Of a stretch of 25,803 nucleotides of DNA, positions 1 to 19,396 are shown piece after piece. The position numbers were made by a program, and so were the translations under genes. The notes under the pieces were generated by a model that did no database searches, was not told the origin of the DNA, and saw only the letters and a program-made list of their open reading frames with translations. Origin of the DNA: a virus (lineage: Duplodnaviria > Heunggongvirae > Uroviricota > Caudoviricetes); IMG/VR virus record IMGVR_UViG_3300045988_092979, positions 1-25,803 of that record, one strand, 5' to 3'. How positions within the stretch are numbered: position 1 is the stretch's first letter; every line of letters starts with the position of its first letter.

Positions 1-501
1 ACGGACTGGCGCATTGTGCCGAAAGTTCCGGTCGTTGAGCCTTTGACTTTAAAAAGCGGCATCGCCGCGCCTCGGAGTCCTGTCAATAACTGTGGAAAGC
101 TCACTGGTGGTGATACTTCGTTACCGGCTCCCACACCTTCTGAGCACGCCGCAGCAGTGCTTAATCTGGTTGATGACGGTGTTATTGAATGGAATGAACC
201 GGAGGTCGTGAGGGCGCTCAGGGGCGCATTAAAACACGACCTGCGAACGCCAAACCGTCAGCAAAGAAACGGAAGCCCGTTAAAACCACATGAAATTGCA
301 CCATCGGCCAGACTGACCCGGTCGGAAAGAATGCAAATCACCCGTATCCGCGTTGACCTTGCTCAGAACGGTATCAGGCCGCAGCGATGGGAGCTTGAGG
401 CGCTGGCGCGTGGCGCGCCCGTAAATTATGACGGGAAAAAATTCACGTATCCGGTCGCTGATGAGTGGCCGGGATTCTCAACAGTAATGGAGTGGAAATG
501 A
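1..501 (+). CDS. 3' portion of a gene that begins upstream of the window; product uncertain, possibly a replication-module protein
   Basis: Reading frame is open from nt 1 with no in-frame stop; the track ORF at 16 begins on GTG. Stop TGA 499-501 overlaps the next start (ATGA). Lies upstream of the tin/old-equivalent position in P2 order. Confidence 0.4.
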   Translation, partial: TDWRIVPKVPVVEPLTLKSGIAAPRSPVNNCGKLTGGDTSLPAPTPSEHAAAVLNLVDDGVIEWNEPEVVRALRGALKHDLRTPNRQQRNGSPLKPHEIAPSARLTRSERMQITRIRVDLAQNGIRPQRWELEALARGAPVNYDGKKFTYPVADEWPGFSTVMEWK

Positions 502-953
502 TGGCAAAAATTCACGAGGTAAAGCTGCACGCCAAATATTTTGACCTTGTGCTGGAAGGAAAGAAACGCGCAGAGTTTCGGAAAAATGACCGTAATTATG
601 AGCGCGGGGACACGTTGATTTTGCATGAATGGGTACAGGGTGTGTATACGGGGCGAAAGGTTGAAGCCCGGATAACAGATGTTACTGACCTGTCAGACTG
701 GCTGGAAGATTATGTCTTGCTAAGTATTGAGCTGCTTAATACAGGCGCATATGAGATTGTGAACTGGAAAGAACTTAGTGAGCGTGGTCTGGTATTCAGA
801 ATTAATCATGAAATTATGCATCAGCTCGGCCTTGCTGTTATGTATGAACCAGAGACGGGGATGTCTGGCGGGGCAATGGTTGCCACGGATGGAGCATGGA
901 ACTATTCAGATGAACAGATGGAGCGTGCACAGCAAAACGGGTGGCTTGGATAA
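498..953 (+). CDS. hypothetical protein, possibly ASCH/PUA-like (DUF3850-like) small protein
   Basis: ATG at 498 and 501 preceded by GGAG (489-492). N-terminal segment KLHAKYFDLVLEGKKRAEFRKNDRNYERGD resembles ASCH-type proteins by recall only. Stop TAA 951-953. Confidence 0.45.
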   Translation: MMAKIHEVKLHAKYFDLVLEGKKRAEFRKNDRNYERGDTLILHEWVQGVYTGRKVEARITDVTDLSDWLEDYVLLSIELLNTGAYEIVNWKELSERGLVFRINHEIMHQLGLAVMYEPETGMSGGAMVATDGAWNYSDEQMERAQQNGWLG

Positions 954-1165
954 TGCACAGAATACCAGGCGAGATACCGCACCATAAAACTAAAAATATC
1001 AAGCTGATGGCTATTGTTCACCGTCTACAGCAGATTATGGTCAACGAAAATCTGACGCCCGATGAGCTAGTCGGGTGTGCCGAAATAGTCCGGGATAATT
1101 ACGGGCGACTTAACTATATCGGTATCGGTCAGTCCAGAGTTGCGCCACCACCACGTAGACGATAG
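953..1165 (+). CDS. small hypothetical protein
   Basis: ATG at 953 overlaps the upstream stop (TAATG); the track start at 941 is GTG. No recognisable motif. Confidence 0.3.
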   Translation: MHRIPGEIPHHKTKNIKLMAIVHRLQQIMVNENLTPDELVGCAEIVRDNYGRLNYIGIGQSRVAPPPRRR

Positions 1166-1291
1166 AGAACGCCGCCAGTCGTGAAACTTGTTTTCAGGGC
1201 TGGCGGGGTTGAACAACGAGCGAAGCGAGGCGTTAGTTCAATCGATGATCATAAGCTTATGAGTTAAGCCTCGAGATTTTGTAGAAAGGGT

Positions 1292-1299
1292 TGTATACT
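1292..1299 (+). promoter_or_regulatory. candidate extended -10 promoter element (TGTATACT) upstream of the methyltransferase gene
   Basis: TGnTATACT at 1292-1299, about 25 nt upstream of ATG 1324; GGAG RBS at 1317-1320. No convincing -35. Confidence 0.3.
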
Positions 1300-1323
1300 G
1301 GACATCGTATGGATCTGGAGTGA

Positions 1324-2349
1324 ATGATGATTGTAAAGGTGATAGACCTTTTTTGTGGTGCTGGCGGATTAACTCATGGTTTGCAACTCGCAGGTCTTGA
1401 TGTCGTTGCTGGTATTGACCTTGAGGGGGAATGTCGATTTCCCTATGAAAAAAACAATAAATCAAAGTTTATTGAGAAAGATATCGCTAAAGTAACCAAA
1501 GAGGAATTACTGAAGCTATATGGTGATGCGTCTATAAAAGTATTGGCTGGATGTGCACCTTGCCAACCTTTTTCAAAATATACTCAAGGAAAAGATAAAG
1601 CGGAAGATAAAAAATGGCCTCTTCTTTATGAGTTCGAGCGTTTAATTCGCGAGGTATCTCCAGAAATTGTAACAATGGAGAACGTGCCTGATGTAACTAA
1701 ACATAAAGTTTATAATGACTTTTATTATTCGTTGTTAGAACTGGGATATTATGTTTGGGCATCAAAGGTTGATTGTGTCGAATATGGAATTCCACAGAAC
1801 CGTTCTCGTCATGTATTGTTAGCCTCAAAGTTGGGGGAGATTGAGTTAGTAAAACGTAATGATGTTATTTTGAAAACTGTTAGGGATGCAATAGGTGGTC
1901 TTCCACCATTAGAAGATGGTCAAACAGATCCAAATGATATATTGCATAGAGCCAGTAAATTAAACTCGATTAATAAAAAAAGAATTATACACTCTATTCC
2001 AGGTGGTACATGGAAGGACTGGCCGGAAGAACTTATTGCTGCTTGTCATATGAAGTCTAGCGGTAAAGGGTATGCTAGCGTATATGGGAGGATGTCTTGG
2101 GATAAGCCAAGCCCGACAATTACAACTCTTTGTTATGGTTTTGGGAATGGTCGTTTTGGCCACCCAGAACAGAACAGAGCTATTTCTCTTAGAGAAGCGG
2201 CTTTGTTGCAAACATTTCCTATGGATTATGTTTTTGTTGAAGAACAGGAAAAGTTTGTTATAAGAAGTATTGGAAAAATGATAGGTAATGCTGTACCAGT
2301 TGAGTTAGGAAAAGTCATTGGGCAATCAATAAAAAATCATTTGAAATAA
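1324..2349 (+). CDS. DNA (cytosine-5)-methyltransferase
   Basis: Canonical C5-MTase motifs in the translation: FCGAGG (motif I, AdoMet binding), PCQPFS (motif IV, catalytic Cys), ENVPD (motif VI), QNRSR (motif VIII), GNAVPV near the C-terminus (motif X). AT-rich relative to the phage backbone by eye. Confidence 0.9.
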   Translation: MMIVKVIDLFCGAGGLTHGLQLAGLDVVAGIDLEGECRFPYEKNNKSKFIEKDIAKVTKEELLKLYGDASIKVLAGCAPCQPFSKYTQGKDKAEDKKWPLLYEFERLIREVSPEIVTMENVPDVTKHKVYNDFYYSLLELGYYVWASKVDCVEYGIPQNRSRHVLLASKLGEIELVKRNDVILKTVRDAIGGLPPLEDGQTDPNDILHRASKLNSINKKRIIHSIPGGTWKDWPEELIAACHMKSSGKGYASVYGRMSWDKPSPTITTLCYGFGNGRFGHPEQNRAISLREAALLQTFPMDYVFVEEQEKFVIRSIGKMIGNAVPVELGKVIGQSIKNHLK

Positions 2350-2355
2350 TAAAAT

Positions 2356-2372
2356 GGCCTGCTTTGCAGGCC
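2356..2372. terminator. bidirectional rho-independent terminator hairpin between convergent genes
   Basis: Perfect 7-bp stem GGCCTGC / GCAGGCC with TTT loop; A-rich on the left (T-run for the minus-strand transcript) and T-rich on the right (TTGTGATTATTTC). Confidence 0.6.
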
Positions 2373-2378
2373 TTGTGA

Positions 2379-3059
2379 TTATTTCTCTAAGTATTCATTA
2401 TTATTTATATAATGTTCTATATTATTCGCGATTGCATCAAGATAGGCTATTACTTCTAATGAAATATTCTCTAAATCCTGATATGAAACATTTTTCCCAA
2501 TCTCAGCAAATGATACATTTCCATGAGATAAATCATTGCGATGCTGTTTAACGGTGGCTAATTTTTCACCATGTTTAGTGTGAGTGTAATCAGAATGGGT
2601 TGAAAATCCATATATTTTCGATTTTTCTTTTATTTCCTCTCTATCAATATTGCCTGAAAATATTTTCTTTTTGTTGAATGTACCATAAGAAATACCACAG
2701 GATATGCCTTTAGTAAGTCCGCCGATTAAATTATCGATGTTAACAGATTCATTTTTTAATCTTTTTAAAATTTCTGATTTTAGGTTTTTTTTAAGTTTAT
2801 CAAACTCTATGTTTCTATCATAAATAGTCTCATGTATAAGGCAGATAGCCTCTCTCATTGTTGATTCAATAAGGTTGTATAATAGTATATACACTGCACC
2901 CTTTAGAGTTTTTCGTGATTGAGATGTAATGGTGAACTTATGTTCTTTATTATCGGATGATATCAATTCCGCACCAGCATGCTCAATAAATTTTAAAAGA
3001 TCTAAATAGGCCAAGATTTCTCCTGACCTTTCGTCAAAATCCTCACGAAAACGATCCAT
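2379..3059 (-). CDS. HEPN-like predicted RNase/effector protein (R-x4-H motif); second gene of a two-gene operon
   Basis: 226 aa; C-terminal region contains KQHRNDLSHG, matching the HEPN R-x4-H signature. Start ATG 3059-3057 preceded by GAGGA; separated by one nucleotide from the stop of the upstream DUF262 gene. AT-rich. Confidence 0.6.
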   Translation of the reverse strand: MDRFREDFDERSGEILAYLDLLKFIEHAGAELISSDNKEHKFTITSQSRKTLKGAVYILLYNLIESTMREAICLIHETIYDRNIEFDKLKKNLKSEILKRLKNESVNIDNLIGGLTKGISCGISYGTFNKKKIFSGNIDREEIKEKSKIYGFSTHSDYTHTKHGEKLATVKQHRNDLSHGNVSFAEIGKNVSYQDLENISLEVIAYLDAIANNIEHYINNNEYLEK

Positions 3060-3060
3060 G

Positions 3061-4203
3061 TTAATCCTCTAATAGTTTGTCTCGCACATATTCAATTCGT
3101 TCAATTACCTTCACGCGACTATTTGCTCCGTCGGAGGTGGTTAATTGTTTGAATTCTTCTGAGCTTAGCCAATCTAAGTTTTTGGGGACAAGGTTAGGCT
3201 CTAGACGTAATGCGAGTGCAGCACCAACAGCGAGAGATTCAAATCTAACTCGAGGTGTGGATTTTGCAGTGATAGTTTTCTTAAAGCCTGCTGGGAAATG
3301 GTTTTCAACGAAAGACAGAACATTCGAAAACTCTTCTTTCATTGAGTTTTGTTCAGCTTCATCTATATCACTCTTTTCCTTCATGTAATCATTCAGAAAA
3401 TCACGCACGGAATGATCAAATTTCTTATATTTATCTAAGTAAGCAAAGAATCTCAATGTAAATTCTAACCGTTCATCTCGTTTTTCTTTAGCCTCAGATA
3501 AAGGTGCTAACTCCTTAAATTTAGATATTGTCGAGCATGGCTTAATAACCTGCGTATATAAATTTGTTGAGCCAAGTTCTGAACCTTTACGAACTTCCAT
3601 ATCTTTCAATATGTCACTACCAGAGTTAATTCGCTCAAAAAGATCCCTGCGGGTTTCTTCATTGCATTTAGAACTCAACTCTATAACACGCACAGGAATT
3701 CTCATGAAACGGCGTTGGCGTGATAATGGTAAATCTTGGAATCTGAAACCATTAAGAGAACTTAAAGATTTCAGATCTTGTAAAACTAATTCATTGTGGA
3801 TAAACGCATGTATGGTTCTAACACGCTGTGAGCCATCAACAATTTCAATCCGTCCATCTAAATCGGGATCTTCTGAAAAGACATCAGCTGTAAATATATA
3901 TGGTATAGGGAAGCCCAAAATTAAAGACTCTATTAATCTTGATTGTCTCTTTTCATTCCAAACAAAGTCCCTTTGATAATCAGGAACAAAGAGTTCGTTG
4001 GTATCATCCTCTAACCCGTTATGATATTTATTAACTAATAACTCAACAGTAAATTCTTTGGTCTCAAAGTCAACATCCTTTTGCTCTGCGCGAATTTGCT
4101 CTTCAGCCTCTTGTTTTATAACTTCTAGCTGAGCTAGGAGTTCTGCCCTTTTTTTGGCATTATCTTCATGTTCTAGTTGAGATTTTAACCCAATAATATC
4201 CAT
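3061..4203 (-). CDS. DUF262 (ParB/sulfiredoxin-like NTP-binding) domain protein, GmrSD N-terminal-domain-like, without a fused DUF1524/HNH nuclease domain
   Basis: 380 aa; FVPDYQRDFVW and IEIVDGSQRV match the two hallmark DUF262 motifs (YQRxYxW and DGQQR). Start ATG 4203-4201 preceded by AAGGGA. AT-rich, coiled-coil-like N-terminus. Confidence 0.7.
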   Translation of the reverse strand: MDIIGLKSQLEHEDNAKKRAELLAQLEVIKQEAEEQIRAEQKDVDFETKEFTVELLVNKYHNGLEDDTNELFVPDYQRDFVWNEKRQSRLIESLILGFPIPYIFTADVFSEDPDLDGRIEIVDGSQRVRTIHAFIHNELVLQDLKSLSSLNGFRFQDLPLSRQRRFMRIPVRVIELSSKCNEETRRDLFERINSGSDILKDMEVRKGSELGSTNLYTQVIKPCSTISKFKELAPLSEAKEKRDERLEFTLRFFAYLDKYKKFDHSVRDFLNDYMKEKSDIDEAEQNSMKEEFSNVLSFVENHFPAGFKKTITAKSTPRVRFESLAVGAALALRLEPNLVPKNLDWLSSEEFKQLTTSDGANSRVKVIERIEYVRDKLLED

Positions 4204-4277
4204 ATCCAGATCCCTTAATGATTGTTATAAATGAAAACAGATAGCATACCGCATAGATCAGGAAAAATGCCATCGCA

Positions 4278-4294
4278 TGCATGAATTTGCATGA
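4278..4294. promoter_or_regulatory. candidate operator: direct repeat TGCATGA x2 with 10-bp register, in the promoter region of the minus-strand operon
   Basis: TGCATGA at 4278-4284 and 4288-4294, embedded in overlapping GCATGC/ATGCAT palindromes, about 75-90 nt upstream of the DUF262 start codon. Confidence 0.3.
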
Positions 4295-4387
4295 GAGAAA
4301 GATTACCATTTGGGATTAGCTTTGCCAGTGCTGATGGGTTTTGGAATTTAATCATGTACTGCATCAAAACCGCCTCATGAAGCGGGC

Positions 4388-4406
4388 GGGCGAGGCGGGG
4401 AAAGCA
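4388..4406. other. cos cohesive-end sequence of P2-type phage (GGCGAGGCGGGGAAAGCAC)
   Basis: Exact 19-nt string that I recall as the P2/P4 cohesive end. It lies between the tin/old-equivalent cargo and gene Q, as expected for P2 genome topology. Confidence 0.6.
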
Positions 4407-4549
4407 CTGCGCGCTGGCGGTGGTGCTGATTTTATTTTTTCAGCGTCTCAGCGCGTCGTAATGGCGTTTAGATTGTGCGCCGGGGCGCTGGTGTGTCTGC
4501 GGGCTGTTTTGTGCGGTGGTGAGTGTGTGAGGGCGTGATGACGGGGTGT

Positions 4550-4571
4550 AAAAAAGCCGCCCGCAGGCGGC
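4550..4571 (-). terminator. rho-independent terminator downstream of portal gene Q
   Basis: On the minus strand: stem GCCGCC-(TGCG loop)-GGCGGC followed by TTTTTT (top-strand A-run 4550-4555), immediately 3' of the Q stop codon (4577-4579). Confidence 0.7.
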
Positions 4572-4576
4572 GATGT

Positions 4577-5611
4577 TCAGCCGTTGTCTGTGTCCAGTGA
4601 GTAGTTTTTAAAGCGGATGACCTCCTGACCGAGCCAGCCGTTTATTTCCCGAATCCTGTCCTGTAACGGGATAAGCTCATTGCGGACAAAGACCTTTGCC
4701 ACTTTCTCAATATCACCCAGCGACCCGACGTTCTCCGGCTTGCCTCCCATCAACTGAAAGGGGATGCGGTGCGCGTCCAGCAGGTCAGCGGCGCTGGCTT
4801 TTTTGATATTAAAAAAATCGTCCTTCGTTGCCACTTCACTGAGCGGGATAATTTTAATGCCGTCGGCTTTCCCCTGTGGGGCATAGAGAAACAGGTTTTT
4901 AAAGTTGTTGCGGCCTTTCGACTTAACCATGTTTTCGCGAAGCATTTCGATATCGTTGCGATCCTGCACGGCATCGGTAACGTACATGATGTATCCGGCA
5001 TGCGCGCCGTTTTCGTAATACTTGCGGCGGAACAGTGTGGCCGACTCATTCAGCCAGGCAGAGTTAAGGGCGCTGAGATATTCCGGCAGGCCGTACAGCT
5101 CCTGATTAATATCCGGCTCCAGCAGGTGAAACACGGAGCCGGGCGCGAAGGCTGTCGGCTCGTTGAAGGACGGCACCCACCAGTAAACATCCTCCTCCAC
5201 GCCACGGCGGGTATATTTTGCCGGTGAGGTTTCCAGTCTGATGACCTTACCGGTGGTGCTGTAACGCTTTTCCAGAAACGCATTACCGAACACCAGAAAA
5301 TCCAGCACAAAGCGGCTGAAATCCTGTTGCGAAAGCCACGGGTGCGGAATAAACGTTGAAGCCAGAATATTACGTTTGACGTAAATCGGTGAACTGTGAT
5401 GCACGGCAGCACGCAGGCTTTTTGCCAGACCGGTAAAGCTGACCGGTGGCTCATACCATCTGCCGTTACTGATGCACTCGATGTAATCCAGAATGTCACG
5501 GCGGTCGAGTACCGGCACCGGTTCACCAAAGGTGAATGCCTCCATTTTCGGGGCGCTGGCGGTCATTTTTTTTGCCGCTGGTCGCGGTGTTTTCCCTTTT
5601 TTCTTGCTCAT
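4577..5611 (-). CDS. Q: portal (capsid portal vertex) protein
   Basis: 344 aa, the size and position of P2 gpQ; basic N-terminus MSKKKGKTPRPAAKK. Start overlaps the stop of P by 1 nt (translational coupling). Confidence 0.9.
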   Translation of the reverse strand: MSKKKGKTPRPAAKKMTASAPKMEAFTFGEPVPVLDRRDILDYIECISNGRWYEPPVSFTGLAKSLRAAVHHSSPIYVKRNILASTFIPHPWLSQQDFSRFVLDFLVFGNAFLEKRYSTTGKVIRLETSPAKYTRRGVEEDVYWWVPSFNEPTAFAPGSVFHLLEPDINQELYGLPEYLSALNSAWLNESATLFRRKYYENGAHAGYIMYVTDAVQDRNDIEMLRENMVKSKGRNNFKNLFLYAPQGKADGIKIIPLSEVATKDDFFNIKKASAADLLDAHRIPFQLMGGKPENVGSLGDIEKVAKVFVRNELIPLQDRIREINGWLGQEVIRFKNYSLDTDNG

Positions 5612-7383
5612 CAGTAAAACTCCAGAATGGTGGATGTCAGCGGAGTGCTGATACCCGCGGTGAGTGGCTCATTTAACAGGGCGTGCATGGTCGCCCAGGC
5701 GAGGTCGGCGTGGCTGGCTTCCTCGCTGCGGCTGGCCTCATAGGTGGCGCTGCGTCCGCTGCTGGTCATGGTCTTGCGGATAGCCATAAACGAGCTGGTG
5801 ATGTCGGTGGCGCTGACGTCATATTCCAGACAGCCACGGCGGATGACGTCTTTTGCCTTGAGCACCATTGCGGTTTTCATTTCCGGCGTGTAGCGGATGT
5901 CGCGCGCGGCGGGATAGAACGAGCGCACGAGCTGGAACACGCCGACACCGAGGCCGGTGGCATCAATACCGATGTATTCGACGTTATATTTTTCGGTGAG
6001 TTTGCGGATGGATTCAGCCTGGGTGGCAAAGTCCATGCCTTTCCACTGGTGACGCTCAAGTATTCTGAATTTGCCACCGGCCACCACCGGCGGTGCCAGC
6101 ACCACGCATCCGGCGCTGTCGCCACGGTGTGACGGGTCGTAACCAATCCAGACCGGGCGGGAGCCGAACGGATTCGCGGCAAACGGCGCATAGTCTTCCC
6201 ATTCTTCCAGCGTGTCGACCATGCAGCGTTGCAGCTCCTCGAACGGGAACACCGACGCCTTGTCGTCAACAAATTCACACATGAACAGGTTTTTAAAATC
6301 GTCGGCGCTGTTTTCACGTTTGAGCTGCTCAATGTCGAACAGCGTGCAGCCGCCTTTCAGGGCGTCCTCAATGGTGACAATCTGCCGCCACTGGCCGTCC
6401 GCACAGAGAAGACCTCCGGCAAGGGCGTTATGACTGACGTCGATTTCCACGCGTTCGGCGGCGCTGGCGCGTCCCCGGTTGAACAGTTCACCCGACCAGA
6501 ACGGGTAGGCGTCGTGCGCCAGCGTGGACGGGGTGGAGAAATAGGTCGAGCGCAGGTGACTCTGTGAGGCCATACCTGATGCCACCTTACGCAGTACCTG
6601 AAAATTCGGGATCCAGAAAATCTCGTCGACGTACAGGTCGCCGTTATGGCTCTGTGCGGTGTTGGAGTTGGTGCCGAGAAAAATCAGTTTTGCGCCGTTA
6701 TTGCCCAGGACAATCGGGTCACCGGTCAGGTCAACGTCAACCAGCCGGGCAAAGGCGATGATGTATTCGCGGAACACATACGCCTGCGTTTTACTGGCCG
6801 ACAGAAAAATCTGGTTATGACCGGTTTTCAGGGCGCGCAGCAGCGCCTCGCGGGAAAAATAAAACGTCGCGCCAATCTGGCGGGATTTCAGGATATCGCG
6901 GATGCGGTGCTCAAGCCCGGCGCGATACCAGTGCAACTGATATTCGAAAGACTGCTCAAAGAAAATCTGCTCCAGCTTTTCGATGGCCTCGTCACTGAAA
7001 AAATTCTTTTTCGGTTTGCGACGCCCGCCTTTGTTGCGGTTAGCGACGTTCGGATTAAGGTCTGCCTCGTTGCCGGTCTGACTGTAGCGGTTTACCCGTG
7101 CCAGTCGTTCAATCTGGCGTCCCAGCAGGTCAATTTCCTTGAAGTCACCGCCGGTTTTCTGCGGTTTGATGATGAGCTGGGTCAGTCGCGCTTCCAGACT
7201 CATTTCGACACGGCTGATGGGGGCAACGCTGTCCCAGCCGTCGCGCTGTTTCCAGCTCTGCACCGTCGGACGTTTCATCTGCAACATGGCGGCAATCTGC
7301 GGCACGGAAAACCCCTGCCAGTACAGCAGCGCCGCCTGACGACGCGGGTCGTGTAAAAGAGTGGTGTCTGTGGTGATGGTCAT
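5611..7383 (-). CDS. P: terminase large (ATPase) subunit
   Basis: Start chosen at ATG 7383 (MTITTDTTLLHDPRRQAALLYWQGF...), with GAGGT RBS upstream; the track ORF extends 10 codons further. Size about 590 aa and position match P2 gpP. Confidence 0.9.
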   Translation of the reverse strand: MTITTDTTLLHDPRRQAALLYWQGFSVPQIAAMLQMKRPTVQSWKQRDGWDSVAPISRVEMSLEARLTQLIIKPQKTGGDFKEIDLLGRQIERLARVNRYSQTGNEADLNPNVANRNKGGRRKPKKNFFSDEAIEKLEQIFFEQSFEYQLHWYRAGLEHRIRDILKSRQIGATFYFSREALLRALKTGHNQIFLSASKTQAYVFREYIIAFARLVDVDLTGDPIVLGNNGAKLIFLGTNSNTAQSHNGDLYVDEIFWIPNFQVLRKVASGMASQSHLRSTYFSTPSTLAHDAYPFWSGELFNRGRASAAERVEIDVSHNALAGGLLCADGQWRQIVTIEDALKGGCTLFDIEQLKRENSADDFKNLFMCEFVDDKASVFPFEELQRCMVDTLEEWEDYAPFAANPFGSRPVWIGYDPSHRGDSAGCVVLAPPVVAGGKFRILERHQWKGMDFATQAESIRKLTEKYNVEYIGIDATGLGVGVFQLVRSFYPAARDIRYTPEMKTAMVLKAKDVIRRGCLEYDVSATDITSSFMAIRKTMTSSGRSATYEASRSEEASHADLAWATMHALLNEPLTAGISTPLTSTILEFY

Positions 7384-15716: not shown

Positions 15717-16320
15717 TTCGCGACTGCTGCCGACCGGCTCATCACCGCTTGAAGTCGCCGCCGCAAGAGCCTGTGCGGAAATTGAAAAAACGCCGGTCAG
15801 TATTCGTGAGCTGTGGAACCCGGATACCTGTCCGGCAAATCTGCTGCCGTGGCTGGCGTGGTCATTTTCGGTTGACCGCTGGGATGATAAGTGGCCGGAA
15901 GCGACAAAACGCGCTGTTATCCGCGATGCGTATTTCATTCACTGCCATAAGGGCACTATTGGTGCGATTCGCCGTGTGGTGGAGCCGCTCGGCTATCTGA
16001 TTGAGGTGAGGGAGTGGTGGCAGCTCAACGAGGAGCCGGGGACGTTCCGCATCGTTGTTGGCGTGCTTGAGCAGGGTATTACCGAGGAAATGTATCAGGA
16101 GCTGGAGCGTCTCGTTGCTGATGCAAAACCTGCAAGCCGCCATCTGACGGGACTGGCTATCAGTTTAAGTACAACCGGCAACATTTTTGCCGGTGCAGGA
16201 TGCTATCACGGCGACGCCCTGACGGTTTATCCCTACACCCCGGAGGCCATTATTGTCGGAGGGGATTATTTCCCGGCCTCGGCCATTCATTTAATTGATA
16301 ACCTGAGAGTAAACGCATGA
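15709..16320 (+). CDS. I: baseplate/tail protein I
   Basis: Follows J with an 8-nt overlap. 203 aa from this ATG (P2 gpI is smaller by recall, so the true start may be downstream). Confidence 0.75.
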   Translation: MSDSRLLPTGSSPLEVAAARACAEIEKTPVSIRELWNPDTCPANLLPWLAWSFSVDRWDDKWPEATKRAVIRDAYFIHCHKGTIGAIRRVVEPLGYLIEVREWWQLNEEPGTFRIVVGVLEQGITEEMYQELERLVADAKPASRHLTGLAISLSTTGNIFAGAGCYHGDALTVYPYTPEAIIVGGDYFPASAIHLIDNLRVNA

Positions 16321-17834
16321 CAGTGAAATACTACGCCATTCTGACTAATCAGGGCGCAGCACGGCTGGCTAACGCGACGATGCTCGGCAGTAAGCTGAAT
16401 CTGACGCAAATGGCCGTTGGTGATGCGAATGGTGTCTTGCCGACACCAGACCCGGCACAGACAAAACTGATTAACCAGAAACGCATCGCGCCGCTGAATC
16501 TTCTGAGTGTTGACCCGAACAACCAGAGCCAGATTATTGCGGAGCAAATCATCCCTGAGAACGAGGGCGGATTCTGGATCCGTGAGATTGGGCTTTATGA
16601 TGATGAAGGCGTACTCATTGCGGTGGCGAACTGCCCGGAAACGTACAAACCGCAGTTGCAGGAAGGCAGCGGTCGTACCCAGACTATCCGCATGATTCTG
16701 GTTGTCACGAATACCGAAGCTATCACGCTGAAAATCGACCCGTCGGTGGTACTGGCGACCCGTAAATACGTGGATGATGAAGTCCTGGAATTAAGGCTGT
16801 ATGTGGATGACCAGATGAGAAACCACATTGCCGCACAGGATCCTCATACCCAGTATGCACAGAAACATAATCCGACATTTACCGGAGAACCAAAAGCGCC
16901 GACGCCTGCCGCAGGAAATAACACCACGCGGATTGCGACCACTGAGTTTGTTCAGGCCGCTATTACCGCTCTGATTAACGGTGCGCCAGCCACGCTGGAC
17001 ACACTGAAAGAAATTGCCGCAGCCATTAACAATGACCCGAAATTCAGTACCACCATTAACAATGCGCTGTCAGGTAAGCAGCCACTGGATGAGACGCTGA
17101 CTCATTTGAGTGGGAAGGATGTTGCCGGTCTTCTTGCATACCTTGGTATTAAAGACGCATCAACAACACAGGTGGGTTTAGTCCGGTTAACCTCATCGCG
17201 GGTATCGGGTGCAGAGGATATTGCAGCCACAGCTAATGCTGTCGCGCAAAACTATACGGACATAAAATCTTTGCAAAACAAAACTCAGGATTCAACTACG
17301 ACACAGAAAGGAATTGTTCAACTTACATCATCAAGGGTATCCGAATCTGAAACGCTTGCTGCAACAGCAAAAGCGGCAGCGATGAATTATGCGGATATTG
17401 TAGCTCTGCAAGGCAAGACTAATGATGCAACCACTACAAACAAGGGAATTATCCGCGTATCTGATTCCAGAACATCAACAGAATCTGGTGTTGCTGCATC
17501 ATCACTTGCTGCATCACAAAACTATTCAGATATGAAAGGGTTGTTTGGTCAATGCGGAATGAAATCTAGAAATCTCGGTGTCGTATACACCAACAGCCAG
17601 TCTTTCGCCATATTTGTAAGCGTCAATGCGGTGCTGTCTGACGGTAGTTCATTTCTGAGCGCCAACGTTAATGTGGATGGTAATTCGGCTAATTTTCGCG
17701 GCTCTCAGACAACAAATCTTGCAGGGCAAAGAGCAACTATCGCATTCATGGTTCCTGCCGGTGCGACCTATATTGTGCAGCAGTTTTCAGGAACAGTGTC
17801 AGATGTTACCTGGGTAGAGGTGGATAAAAAATGA
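16317..17834 (+). CDS. H: tail fibre protein H; constant part to 17144, currently expressed variable C-terminal part 17145-17834
   Basis: 505 aa; N-terminal two-thirds in the canonical H position; the distal part contains three tandem ~45-aa repeats and is AT-rich. A hix-like crossover site lies in frame at 17131-17156. Confidence 0.85.
   Translation: MTVKYYAILTNQGAARLANATMLGSKLNLTQMAVGDANGVLPTPDPAQTKLINQKRIAPLNLLSVDPNNQSQIIAEQIIPENEGGFWIREIGLYDDEGVLIAVANCPETYKPQLQEGSGRTQTIRMILVVTNTEAITLKIDPSVVLATRKYVDDEVLELRLYVDDQMRNHIAAQDPHTQYAQKHNPTFTGEPKAPTPAAGNNTTRIATTEFVQAAITALINGAPATLDTLKEIAAAINNDPKFSTTINNALSGKQPLDETLTHLSGKDVAGLLAYLGIKDASTTQVGLVRLTSSRVSGAEDIAATANAVAQNYTDIKSLQNKTQDSTTTQKGIVQLTSSRVSESETLAATAKAAAMNYADIVALQGKTNDATTTNKGIIRVSDSRTSTESGVAASSLAASQNYSDMKGLFGQCGMKSRNLGVVYTNSQSFAIFVSVNAVLSDGSSFLSANVNVDGNSANFRGSQTTNLAGQRATIAFMVPAGATYIVQQFSGTVSDVTWVEVDKK
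17131..17156. other. hix/gix-like 26-bp inversion crossover site (left), inside H
   Basis: TTCTTGCATACC-TT-GGTATTAAAGAC: 12-bp half-sites around a 2-bp core; left half matches the Salmonella hixL half-site TTCTTGAAAACC at 10/12 (from memory). Core TT is complementary to core AA of the right site. Confidence 0.6.
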
Positions 17835-18199
17835 TAACAATGATGAAGTATTACAAAGATGAAAATAACGTCGTATATGCCTACGATGCGTATGGCACAC
17901 AGGATGCTTTTATCAAAGAAGGGCTTGTGCCAATCACCAGAAGTGAGGCTATGGCAATTATTAATCCCCCACCGACTCATGAACAACTCATCCAGGCTGC
18001 TGAAAATGAGCGACAGCGATTACTGTCCGCCGCTGATGCAATTATGCTCGACTGGCGCACAGAGCTGATGCTGGGTGAAATCAGCGATGCCAACAGAGCT
18101 AAACTTTCGGCGTGGCTTTTATATAAGAATCAGGTTAAGGCTGTTGATGTAACAACCGACCCTGAGCATGTTAACTGGCCTGTCATCCCGGAACTTTAG
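17831..18199 (+). CDS. G: tail fibre assembly chaperone (Tfa)
   Basis: 122 aa immediately after H with ATGA overlap; ends in a WPxxP-type motif (NWPVIPEL) typical of Tfa proteins. AT-rich. Confidence 0.7.
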   Translation: MITMMKYYKDENNVVYAYDAYGTQDAFIKEGLVPITRSEAMAIINPPPTHEQLIQAAENERQRLLSAADAIMLDWRTELMLGEISDANRAKLSAWLLYKNQVKAVDVTTDPEHVNWPVIPEL

Positions 18200-18205
18200 A
18201 CCATA

Positions 18206-18250
18206 CTGGTCTTGCTACATCAATGCGCATCAGCAAGACCAGCTATTTTC
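18206..18250 (+). terminator. stem-loop/terminator after the tail-fibre assembly gene
   Basis: 11-bp perfect inverted repeat CTGGTCTTGCT / AGCAAGACCAG (18206-18216 and 18232-18242) with a 15-nt loop, followed by CTATTTTC. Confidence 0.5.
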
Positions 18251-18301
18251 AAACTAAGCAACATAGCCCTCCGCTACTCCTCCTGTTCGAAACGAACGTT
18301 T

Positions 18302-18733
18302 TCATGCCGCCCTTACGATATAATTAAACGCAATGTTACGAGGACGAATGGTTACATAATTAACCCCATCACCTCGTGAAGGCCCTGCAAATGAAAAACG
18401 GGAAAATCCTGGTTGGTTAGAAACAATTTGGTCATAGTTATTGATTGAATGACCAGACCCAATGTCGAAATTACCTCCGTAATGAGAAAAACTTGTACCA
18501 TCCTGCCCTGAAAGCAGGGTACGTCCCGCATCAATCCCGCGCCCATCATCCCAGCCACGGATAAATTCACCGCGTAAATCCGGTAATTTATTGGTGGGGT
18601 AGGCTTTTGCCAGTTTGGGATACATTTCAGAAGAAAATGCTGCACCATTGCATTTTAGCCAGCCCGTTGGTGGTGTTTCTAAGGGCCACGGAACGGGCAC
18701 ACCAACAGGCAGTGCAGAGCCTTCCCCCAAACC
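18302..18733 (-). CDS. silent, start-less alternative tail-fibre C-terminal cassette in inverted orientation
   Basis: Translation (…GWLKCNGAAFSSEMYPKLAKAYPTNKLPDLRGEFIRGWDDGRGID…) is a classic P2 H / Mu S-type fibre C-terminus. Its 5' end coincides with the right crossover site, so the track ATG at 18775 is not a real start. Confidence 0.7.
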   Translation of the reverse strand, partial: GLGEGSALPVGVPVPWPLETPPTGWLKCNGAAFSSEMYPKLAKAYPTNKLPDLRGEFIRGWDDGRGIDAGRTLLSGQDGTSFSHYGGNFDIGSGHSINNYDQIVSNQPGFSRFSFAGPSRGDGVNYVTIRPRNIAFNYIVRAA

Positions 18734-18747
18734 AACGTTTATGAAAA
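18722..18747. other. hix/gix-like 26-bp inversion crossover site (right)
   Basis: TTCCCCCAAACC-AA-CGTTTATGAAAA: 19/26 identity to hixL TTCTTGAAAACCAAGGTTTTTGATAA (from memory), conserved AAACC..GTTT inner positions, 56 bp upstream of the invertase start. Confidence 0.6.
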
Positions 18748-18802
18748 TGCAGAGACAACGGGTAACTGGCATCATCTCCGGTTTTTATTCAGGGGGATGC
18801 TC

Positions 18803-19396
18803 ATGCTTATTGGCTATGTACGCGTGTCAACAAATGACCAGAACACGGAATTGCAGCGTAACGCGCTGGAGTGCGCAGGATGTGAGCTGATTTTTGAGGA
18901 TAAAATCAGCGGCACTAAGTCCGACCGACCGGGACTGAAAAAACTGCTCAGGACATTATCGGAGGGGGATACACTGGTGGTCTGGAAGCTGGACAGGCTG
19001 GGGCGTAGTATGCGGCATCTGGTCATTCTGGTTGAGGAGCTGCGCGAACGCGGCGTTAATTTTCGCAGCCTGACGGATGCTATTGATACCAGCACGCCGA
19101 TGGGGCGTTTTTTCTTTCATGTGATGGGTGCCCTGGCTGAAATGGAACGAGAACTCATTGTCGAGCGGACACGCGCCGGACTGGAAGCGACCAGAGCTAA
19201 AGGTCGTATTGGTGGCAGACGTCCGAAGCTCACCGCGAGTGAGTGGGAACAGGCAGGACGGTTGCTGGCTGCGGGTGAATCACGTCAACGCGTGGCGCTG
19301 ATTTTTGATATTGGCCTGTCCACGCTCTATAAAAAATTCCCCTCATCAGCGACAAAGAATAAATTGTGTCATCCCTTAGCCAACCGGGACAAATAG
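18803..19396 (+). CDS. site-specific DNA invertase, serine recombinase of the Hin/Gin/Cin/Pin family
   Basis: N-terminus MLIGYVRVSTNDQ with the catalytic serine, and near colinear similarity to Gin as I recall it (…LVVWKLDRLGRSM…GRFFFHVMGALAEMERELI…GRIGGRRPKL…). GGGGG RBS upstream; the track ORF starts two codons earlier. Confidence 0.9.
   Translation: MLIGYVRVSTNDQNTELQRNALECAGCELIFEDKISGTKSDRPGLKKLLRTLSEGDTLVVWKLDRLGRSMRHLVILVEELRERGVNFRSLTDAIDTSTPMGRFFFHVMGALAEMERELIVERTRAGLEATRAKGRIGGRRPKLTASEWEQAGRLLAAGESRQRVALIFDIGLSTLYKKFPSSATKNKLCHPLANRDK

Follow-up and report, generated by a model that had tools for sequence, protein, structure and literature searches.

We identified a three-gene cassette of predicted anti-phage function in the genome of a P2-like phage. 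The DNA analysed, referred to below as the window, is a stretch of 25,803 nucleotides (nt) that covers positions 1 to 25,803 of the IMG/VR virus record IMGVR_UViG_3300045988_092979 (Caudoviricetes). The cassette lies between replication gene A and the cohesive end site cos, and encodes a C5 cytosine DNA methyltransferase (MTase) and, convergent with it, a DUF262 protein followed by a HEPN protein of the MAE_28990 family (Table 1). Comparison of the sequences across phages and bacterial chromosomes indicates that the three genes are one co-inherited unit. We infer from the domains, the linkage of the genes and their location that the cassette has an anti-phage function. At a probability of about 0.55, we propose that it resembles a restriction-modification (R-M) system, in which the MTase would mark self DNA, the DUF262 NTPase would read the modification state and the HEPN RNase would be the effector.

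The linkage of the three genes extends well beyond P2-like phages. An alignment of the HEPN protein was scanned against one genome per species (185,579 genomes) and recovered about 510 loci, 80 of which were fetched; these represent 80 genomes at the species level, from cyanobacteria, gammaproteobacteria, Bacteroidales, Acidobacteria and other groups. The DUF262 gene lies directly 5' of the HEPN gene in all 80 loci, usually with gaps or overlaps of 1-4 nt; the junction in the window reads GAGGAT-TAA-C-ATG. The pair is adjoined in 41 of the 80 by an orthologue of the window MTase (E 1e-115 to 1e-208), rather than by just any C5-MTase; this orthologue almost always converges on the HEPN gene and often overlaps it at the stop codons. 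A search of IMG/VR with an MTase alignment gave 355 contigs with a relative, and the layout MTase -> <- HEPN <- DUF262 recurs in 57 of the 80 contigs fetched, again often with overlapping 3' ends (MTase E-values 1e-151 to 1e-170; HEPN profile E-values 1e-84 to 1e-14). Within the MTase-linked clade, pairwise divergences of the MTase and DUF262 proteins are correlated with r = 0.96 (n = 39), those of DUF262 and HEPN with 0.84 and those of HEPN and MTase with 0.85. HEPN is the fastest-diverging protein throughout.

The intact trio is found in unrelated contexts: besides the P2 slot, these are a linear element of Klebsiella, prophages of Moraxella, and the chromosomes of Tatumella and cyanobacteria. 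The Klebsiella pneumoniae copy, on a 32-kb linear 'plasmid' (CP069825) that is not a P2 element, has 85-87% protein identity to the window. This element also carries ParB/RepB, DUF977 and DnaC-like genes and is possibly a linear phage-plasmid. Nine Moraxella prophages have the trio at 59% (MTase), 43% (DUF262) and 32% (HEPN) identity, and Peduovirus P24B2 (NC_049387) has a diverged version in the same P2 slot as the window (71-77%, 47% and 30%, respectively). A first-pass annotation, made from the window alone, had recognized three cargo genes next to cos. Their position was correctly described, but they form one co-evolving cassette rather than a set of independent items.

Pfam matches bear out the identities proposed at that stage for the genes (C5-MTase, HEPN-like and DUF262), and none of the three proteins varies in its catalytic motifs. 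Across 40 MTase orthologues, the invariant motifs include FxGxG (residues 10-15), PCQ (79-81), ENV (119-121), QxRxR (158-162), RE..Q.FP (290-299) and GN.VPV (321-326). The region between motifs VIII and IX of C5-MTases is normally the variable target-recognition domain. Here its conservation (0.77) is as high as that of the catalytic core (0.72) across the 40 orthologues, which suggests that they may have a single target motif in common. Prediction of this target from relatives in the PDB (M.HaeIII at 1e-20, DNMT1 and M.HhaI) was dropped, as the match is confined to the catalytic core. Promoter-like hexamers lie 5' of the MTase gene, in a region where such sites are no more frequent than expected by chance. 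The convergent stop codons are separated by a hairpin with a 7-bp stem, 6 GC pairs and T-rich tails on both strands.

The HEPN protein scores 103.2 bits against PF18737, for which the cut-off is 26.8, and its R174-x4-H179 motif is invariant; its RefSeq name likewise follows the MAE_28990 family. The DUF262 protein contains the QRxxxW and DGxQR motifs (Y76-Q77-R78...W82 and D123-G124-S-Q126-R127). In fold searches with predicted structures, the HEPN model resembles HEPN RNase toxins and the DUF262 model resembles the modification-sensing proteins BrxU, SspE and DndI, with ParB-like nuclease entries also among the matches. A sequence search of solved structures gave a single match for DUF262, BrxU (E = 0.33), and none for HEPN. 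No PD-(D/E)XK, HNH, GIY-YIG or PLD domain was detected in the cassette proteins with Pfam or PADLOC. The DUF262 protein in particular has no PF07510-type (DUF1524) match and no conserved DHxxP-like motif in its C-terminal half.

Given these features, the cassette might operate as follows. By methylating a fixed sequence motif, the C5-MTase would label the DNA of host and prophage as 'self'. The DUF262 NTPase, with its putative DNA-binding C-terminal domain, would scan DNA and read the modification state, by analogy with SspE, BrxU/GmrSD and the DndI-system protein. If it encountered unmarked DNA, or if a phage factor interfered with it, DUF262 would release or activate the translationally coupled HEPN protein (R-x4-H), with which it would physically interact. 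The HEPN RNase would then cut tRNA or mRNA and halt phage growth, probably by abortive infection. In this scheme it is unmethylated rather than modified DNA that would be sensed.

A different division of labour was put forward in 2013 for HEPN genes within R-M operons, by analogy with PrrC-EcoprrI (PMC3710099). According to that model, DUF262 is itself a DNase that restricts unmethylated DNA, and HEPN is a latent PrrC-like RNase that it restrains and that is freed only when a phage inhibits restriction. The linkage and co-divergence with the MTase fit that model as they fit ours, some ParB-fold proteins are nucleases, as the ParB-like nuclease entries among the fold matches recall, and the DUF262 region has a weak PADLOC match to REase_II (3.1e-5). 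However, DUF262 is the NTPase and sensor in the characterized DUF262 defence enzymes, where cutting falls to a separate DUF1524 HNH domain that is absent here (PMC10952713, PMC12065111). In addition, a nuclease motif is not recognizable in the conserved C-terminal half of DUF262, and the two genes are always tightly coupled, as in a sensor-effector pair. We therefore consider a DUF262 DNase unlikely.

Several observations weigh against a defence gated by the cassette's own methylation, some of which concern DUF262-HEPN pairs that lack the methylase. In 39 of the 80 genome loci the pair has no adjacent MTase and lies beside acnB, clpB, secA, glyS or cobN, and in the DUF262 tree MTase-linked and MTase-less pairs fall into separate clades. 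Thus, a two-gene form exists, embedded among housekeeping genes. Nostoc-type genomes (nine Nostocales loci and others) have the methylase-less pair 3' of aconitase B, and six Microcoleus loci have it 3' of clpB; these fixed chromosomal positions suggest vertical inheritance of the stand-alone form in cyanobacteria. The large open reading frame (ORF) that recurs 5' of methylase-less pairs was considered as an alternative methylase and rejected, since it is acnB, clpB or secA. PD-T4-2, a DUF262 and HEPN pair whose defence against T4 is experimentally established, also by deleting it from its native strain (Vassallo et al. 2022, PMC9519451), protects E. coli K-12 without a methylase. Together with the 39 methylase-less loci, this implies that a dedicated mark is not universally needed by the pair. 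In P24B2, the MTase frame is broken near residue 227 (2021-3041; tblastn frames -2 and -3) while DUF262-HEPN is intact; the break is due either to faulty sequencing or to a natural loss of the methylase with which the host can live, and if it is genuine, an unmethylated host tolerates the pair. The well-studied GmrSD-type DUF262 enzymes, moreover, sense the presence of modified bases, not their absence.

Homology of the cassette to validated systems is also partial, as judged from profile matches: the window HEPN has no PADLOC match, including to PD-T4-2_B, even at E <= 10, and the window DUF262 is closer to NsnA than to PD-T4-2_A. The structure model of DUF262 has a predicted template modelling score (pTM) of just 0.52, and a search of the literature collection used here found no experimental paper on a system of DUF262, MAE_28990 HEPN and C5-MTase.

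The methylase-less clade, the frameshifted P24B2 methylase and the activity of PD-T4-2 against T4, whose DNA is hypermodified, would also fit a reading in which the window holds two independent cargo items. One would be a PD-T4-2-like pair that senses modified phage DNA (for example, hydroxymethylated or glucosylated) or another cue, and the other an unrelated anti-restriction MTase that protects P2 DNA. In line with this, GmrSD and BrxU sense modified cytosines, the MTase and the pair are on opposite strands with separate upstream regions, and the MTase and the pair can be re-assorted, as an MTase at 73% identity is found with DUF262/HEPN at 75/60% or at 46/31%. Nevertheless, the orthologous MTase stays adjacent to the pair in cyanobacterial, Acidobacteria and Bacteroidales chromosomes, where phage anti-restriction would make no sense. 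The co-divergence of MTase and DUF262 and the identical layout in most MTase-anchored phage loci likewise argue for one unit, and other partners of the MTase are restriction-like, not random neighbours. We regard two independent items as rather improbable and retain the single methylation-linked system as the preferred interpretation.

These other partners were found in the 23 of the 80 MTase-anchored viral loci that lack DUF262-HEPN. The commonest convergent partner is a MORC-type GHKL ATPase (15 loci in one cluster), one representative of which has a weak match to the Shedu SduA_C nuclease. In some loci a Vsr mismatch endonuclease overlaps the 3' end of the MTase gene, and two have an SNF2 helicase. 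The methylases with these partners, from IMG/VR contigs and phage PhiR44_1, are 57-63% identical to that of the window. PhiR44_1 carries Dcm and ParaMORC3 in the same P2 slot, its MTase being 57% identical to the window's over the full length. Closer MTases, at 72-73% identity, are paired with DUF262/HEPN proteins at 75/60% in one locus and at 45-47/31-32% in three others. The other convergent partners are likewise restriction-like, as would be expected for a modification module, and the pattern across these sequences is that of a stable modification module joined to a fast-evolving, exchangeable sensor/effector module. More tentatively, and as a possibility rather than an expectation, the cassette may be an R-M system whose 'R' is an RNase, where 5-methylcytosine (m5C) at one fixed motif would be read by a ParB-like NTPase that activates HEPN. 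It would then belong to a wider, unrecognized class in which a conserved C5-methylase lineage serves interchangeable effectors (DUF262-HEPN, MORC-nuclease, SNF2 helicase) swapped at the convergent junction.

The closest published description is that of operons with a MAE_28990 HEPN gene, a ParB gene and a DNA methylase gene, which were recognized computationally (Anantharaman et al. 2013, Biol Direct 8:15; PF18737). The window has the same three components, with a family HEPN that bears the Rx4-6H motif and adjacent ParB-superfamily (DUF262) and DNA methylase genes. There is no architectural difference, and Microcystis is one of many cyanobacteria whose orthologues are arranged in the same order. 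The 2013 entry, one line of comparative genomics with no experiment, mentions neither the location in the P2 hotspot nor the sister clade that lacks the methylase, nor that partners are re-assorted.

Among characterized defence systems, PD-T4-2 was compared by way of PADLOC models rather than by direct alignment of the proteins. The window DUF262 matches PD-T4-2_A at 1.2e-34 (profile positions 55-356 of 363), with NsnA scoring higher, and the HEPN similarity is at the level of the Pfam clan only (RiboL-PSP/MAE_28990). The PD-T4-2 HEPN is shorter, at about 165 amino acids (aa) as opposed to 226, and there is no counterpart to the co-inherited C5-MTase of the cassette. With Menshen (NsnABC), the window DUF262 shares the NsnA architecture (ParB-DUF262 and ParBDB), and NsnA is its best PADLOC match (3.3e-55, positions 23-376 of 385). 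However, the NsnB ATPase and the NsnC inPIN-effector are absent; the sole gene downstream is that for HEPN, and there is no ATPase ORF in the island. GmrSD and BrxU share the DUF262 NTPase motifs QRxxxW and DGxQR but have a DUF1524 His-Me/HNH nuclease that the window lacks, and they attack modified DNA and have no cognate methylase. SspABCD-SspE and DndBCDE-DndI follow the same logic as that proposed here; their mark is phosphorothioate, in contrast to the m5C that one enzyme would make here, and their effector is a fused DUF1524 HNH DNA nickase, whereas here it would be a separate predicted HEPN RNase.

With regard to classical Type II R-M systems, the predicted C5-MTase of the cassette has all catalytic motifs, present and invariant, and no endonuclease of a known restriction fold was detected in the cassette, apart from the weak match of the DUF262 region to one REase_II model. 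In PrrC-EcoprrI, too, the gene for a HEPN-type RNase lies within an R-M unit, which is proposed to control the RNase. That unit is a Type I R-M complex and PrrC has its own NTPase domain, whereas in the cassette a Type I enzyme is absent and the NTPase (DUF262) is a protein of its own. The old-tin and PhiR44_1 cargoes occupy the same slot as the cassette. The old-tin genes are also an AT-rich, minus-strand operon beside cos, and PhiR44_1 has a methylase in the same position as the window, convergent with its partner. Their effectors (OLD nuclease/Tin and the MORC-type GHKL ATPase, respectively) are unrelated to those of the window.

The cassette is a compositional island and is best explained as DNA acquired by horizontal transfer. 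Positions 1239-4350 have a GC content of 0.357, as opposed to 0.551 in the remainder of the window. In sliding windows of 300 nt the stretch from about 1350 to about 4340 is a sharp trough of 0.29-0.42, with 0.45-0.54 on the gene-A side and 0.50-0.62 on the Q/P side. The 3.1-kb stretch with the minimum GC in the 25.8-kb window begins at 1251 (0.357; median 0.558). The MTase, HEPN and DUF262 genes have a GC content at third codon positions (GC3) of 0.266, 0.238 and 0.289, respectively, more than 4.5 standard deviations (SD) under the value for 25 backbone genes (0.632 +/- 0.072, minimum 0.463). Codon-usage distance to the pooled backbone is 12.4-14.2 for the three cargo genes and, computed leave-one-out, 7.05 +/- 1.71 for the backbone genes (maximum 10.5), so that all three cargo genes exceed every backbone gene. 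The first-pass annotation had judged the segment by eye to be more AT-rich than the P2 backbone on either side, and GC content, GC3 and codon usage agree, with a strong difference from the flanks.

We give practically no weight to the notion that there is no real island, the AT-richness being ordinary P2 variation and the genes backbone. The tail-fibre region of P2 is indeed somewhat AT-richer as well (0.44-0.47). That reading is refuted by the low GC3 of the trio, by homology breakpoints against eight other P2-like genomes, which flank precisely this segment, and by the rarity of the trio, found in nine of 5426 complete E. coli genomes, 1527 of which have the cos-Q backbone. These counts also show that the trio is not conserved backbone of P2-like phages at large.

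The flanks place the cassette in a known hotspot. The window aligns to reference P2 (NC_001895) over 1-721 and again from 4360, and positions 722-4359 thus replace the C-terminus of Orf91, tin and old. At the same place, P2 has A, Orf91 (DUF3850), tin and old (both on the minus strand), the start of the old-tin transcript and cosR. The first-pass annotation had placed cos and gene Q to the right of the cargo, as we confirmed (4389-4407 and 4577-5611). The cos of the window aligns with cosR and cosL of NC_001895, and gene Q has a terminator at 4556-4571, where P2 has the annotated tQ. The cargo also has the geometry of tin/old, a minus-strand operon that begins about 190 nt from cos, and tin and old are AT-rich in P2 itself (0.33 and 0.35). 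E. coli GN04592 contains a copy of window positions 1-6000 at 98.8% identity, integrated beside cpxP, in a prophage with the full gene order int-C-cox-...-A-[cargo]-Q-P-O-N, where the counterpart of gene A is annotated as a replication endonuclease.

Eight other P2-like genomes have the flanks in common at 86-98% identity and carry different cargo. Alternatives in P2-like phages include Fic/VbhT, retron Ec48, DUF4238, DUF4209, cytolethal distending toxin (CDT) and Dcm with ParaMORC3. This slot has been defined as P2 defence hotspot #1 (Vassallo 2022, PMC9519451; Rousset 2022, PMC9122126); DUF262, Dcm and methyltransferases go unmentioned in the main text of Rousset et al. 2022. The tin/old position, the cargo of the relatives and the hotspot literature all support the earlier suggestion of a variable P2 locus in which defence cargo is exchanged.

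The edges first proposed for the island, 1166 and about 4340, hold up on the right, where homology places the cassette edge at 4273-4359, but not on the left. There the edge is at 1224-1238 in comparison with the closest relatives, and at 1256-1266 for the portable core. Copies outside P2 (on the linear element of Klebsiella, in the chromosome of Tatumella and on other IMG/VR contigs) align solely over about 1256/1266 to about 4203/4273, at 72-77% nucleotide identity. The whole variable slot is wider: its left end lies at about 470-493 for most P2-like phages, and at 722 when reference P2 is the comparison. Yersinia phage vB_YpM_50 has window positions 1-1237 and 4315-6000 in common, that is, it lacks the cassette stretch, and in an E. 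coli version that is 89% identical (L002) positions 1-493 are joined straight to 1224 onward. Since L002 lacks 494-1223 and vB_YpM_50 lacks the cassette, the slot consists of two separable modules. The stretch 1166-1238, outside the cassette, occurs in up to about 250 E. coli genomes without it and is common to vB_YpM_50 (up to 1237) and pro147 (1149-1236); possibly it is a recombination anchor that these genomes share, or else the early operon ends here.

The upstream region of the DUF262-HEPN operon (4204..4388) occupies the position of the old-tin promoter region of P2. A promoter scan of it located none with confidence, and a terminator-like hairpin lies at 4370-4385 on the minus strand. 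Mobility of the transposon or integron type was rejected, as direct or inverted repeats of note are absent around the island; exchange is probably through homologous recombination in the conserved flanks. Searches with Rfam found no non-coding RNA family at threshold anywhere in the window.

Mobility and foreign composition, together with compactness, are also what would be expected of a selfish addiction module. Type II R-M systems are known to cause post-segregational killing. By such a scheme, loss of the cassette or prophage would dilute methylation, longer-lived DUF262-HEPN would kill the cell, and the main role of the cassette would be to stabilize itself and the prophage. This role is compatible with defence, but the tested cargo of the slot is overwhelmingly anti-phage, and the vertically inherited methylase-less pairs do not fit. 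We consider addiction as the main role very improbable, and favour the R-M-like defence system proposed above.

Table 1. Features of the P2 slot and of the tail-fibre region, with coordinates in the window.
Feature	Coordinates	Strand	Evidence and remarks
3' end of P2 replication gene A	16..501	+	96.5% identity to gene A of P2; backbone anchor on the left of the slot
DUF3850/ASCH + DUF7415 protein	465..953	+	PF12961 7.9e-18, PF24187 2.3e-14, PF04266; GC 0.47
Small ORF, 74 aa (orf74), phage family of unknown function	941..1165	+	phrog_11386 1.4e-40
Junction sequence, 73 nt, non-coding	1166..1238	.	100% identity in the listed genomes; outside the AT-rich cassette
Portable core of the three-gene cassette, ~3.0 kb	1256..4273	.	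GC 0.36
Promoter-like hexamers 5' of the MTase gene	1271..1328	+	Consensus match only; TCGAGA-17-TATACT, TGGACA-18-AATGAT
C5 cytosine DNA MTase, 341 aa, predicted active	1324..2349	+	PF00145 7.6e-58; TIGR00675 dcm 7.4e-37
GC-rich hairpin GGCCTGC-TTT-GCAGGCC	2356..2372	.	Between the convergent stops; bidirectional terminator-like
MAE_28990-family HEPN, 226 aa, predicted RNase effector	2379..3059	-	PF18737 2.8e-29
DUF262 ParB/sulfiredoxin-fold NTPase with helical C-terminal domain, NsnA-like, 380 aa	3061..4203	-	PF03235 (GmrSD_N) 6.6e-27; predicted DNA/modification sensor
Upstream region of the DUF262-HEPN operon and right P2 junction	4204..4388	-	Homology to other P2-like phages is regained at 4315-4359
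P2 cos, 19-nt cohesive end sequence GGCGAGGCGGGGAAAGCAC	4389..4407	+	Exact match, 0 expected by chance
Portal gene Q	4577..5611	-	PF04860; 96% identical to P2; right backbone anchor
Fibre gene	16317-17834		
Tail-fibre assembly gene	17831-18199		
Inverted ORF, phage Tail Collar domain	18302-18775	-	
Serine invertase	18797-19396		Resolvase + HTH_7, 9.8e-52

The first module of the slot, at 494-1223, has a GC content of 0.47-0.48 and encodes the DUF3850 protein and the 74-aa product of orf74. The former is 97% identical to P2 Orf91 over its first 75 aa and then differs, with a longer C-terminus (DUF7415). Since P2 homology ends at 721, within the gene, a recombination breakpoint lies inside this ORF. 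The gene is missing in L002, where the cassette adjoins gene A. No Pfam or PADLOC match was found for the 74-aa product; orf74 is common to vB_YpM_50 and moves together with the DUF3850 gene. On these comparisons, the two genes form a separate exchangeable module of the same slot.

Distant from the slot, the tail-fibre region at 16317-19396 is AT-richer (GC 0.44-0.47) and looks like an invertible host-range switch of the Mu G-segment or P1 C-segment type. A Gin/Hin-like half-palindrome lies at 18729-18740, beside the invertase gene; a search of the window found no partner crossover site for it.

As an island, the segment illustrates the P2 defence hotspot in textbook fashion and brings no new concept; its cargo is more useful. 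It is a methylase-linked DUF262-HEPN system, computationally predicted, that is rare in E. coli and widely distributed elsewhere. The unit is compact and widespread, with the HEPN protein in about 510 of 185,579 species-level genomes and a relative of the MTase in 355 IMG/VR contigs, and current defence-finder models miss the trio as a system and return a partial NsnA match only. It offers a clean test of whether a DUF262 sensor couples the DNA modification state to an RNase, for which the methylase-less sister clade and PD-T4-2 are natural controls for the contribution of the methylase. That one MTase lineage is common to several effector modules suggests a general plug-in design, which can be mined systematically.

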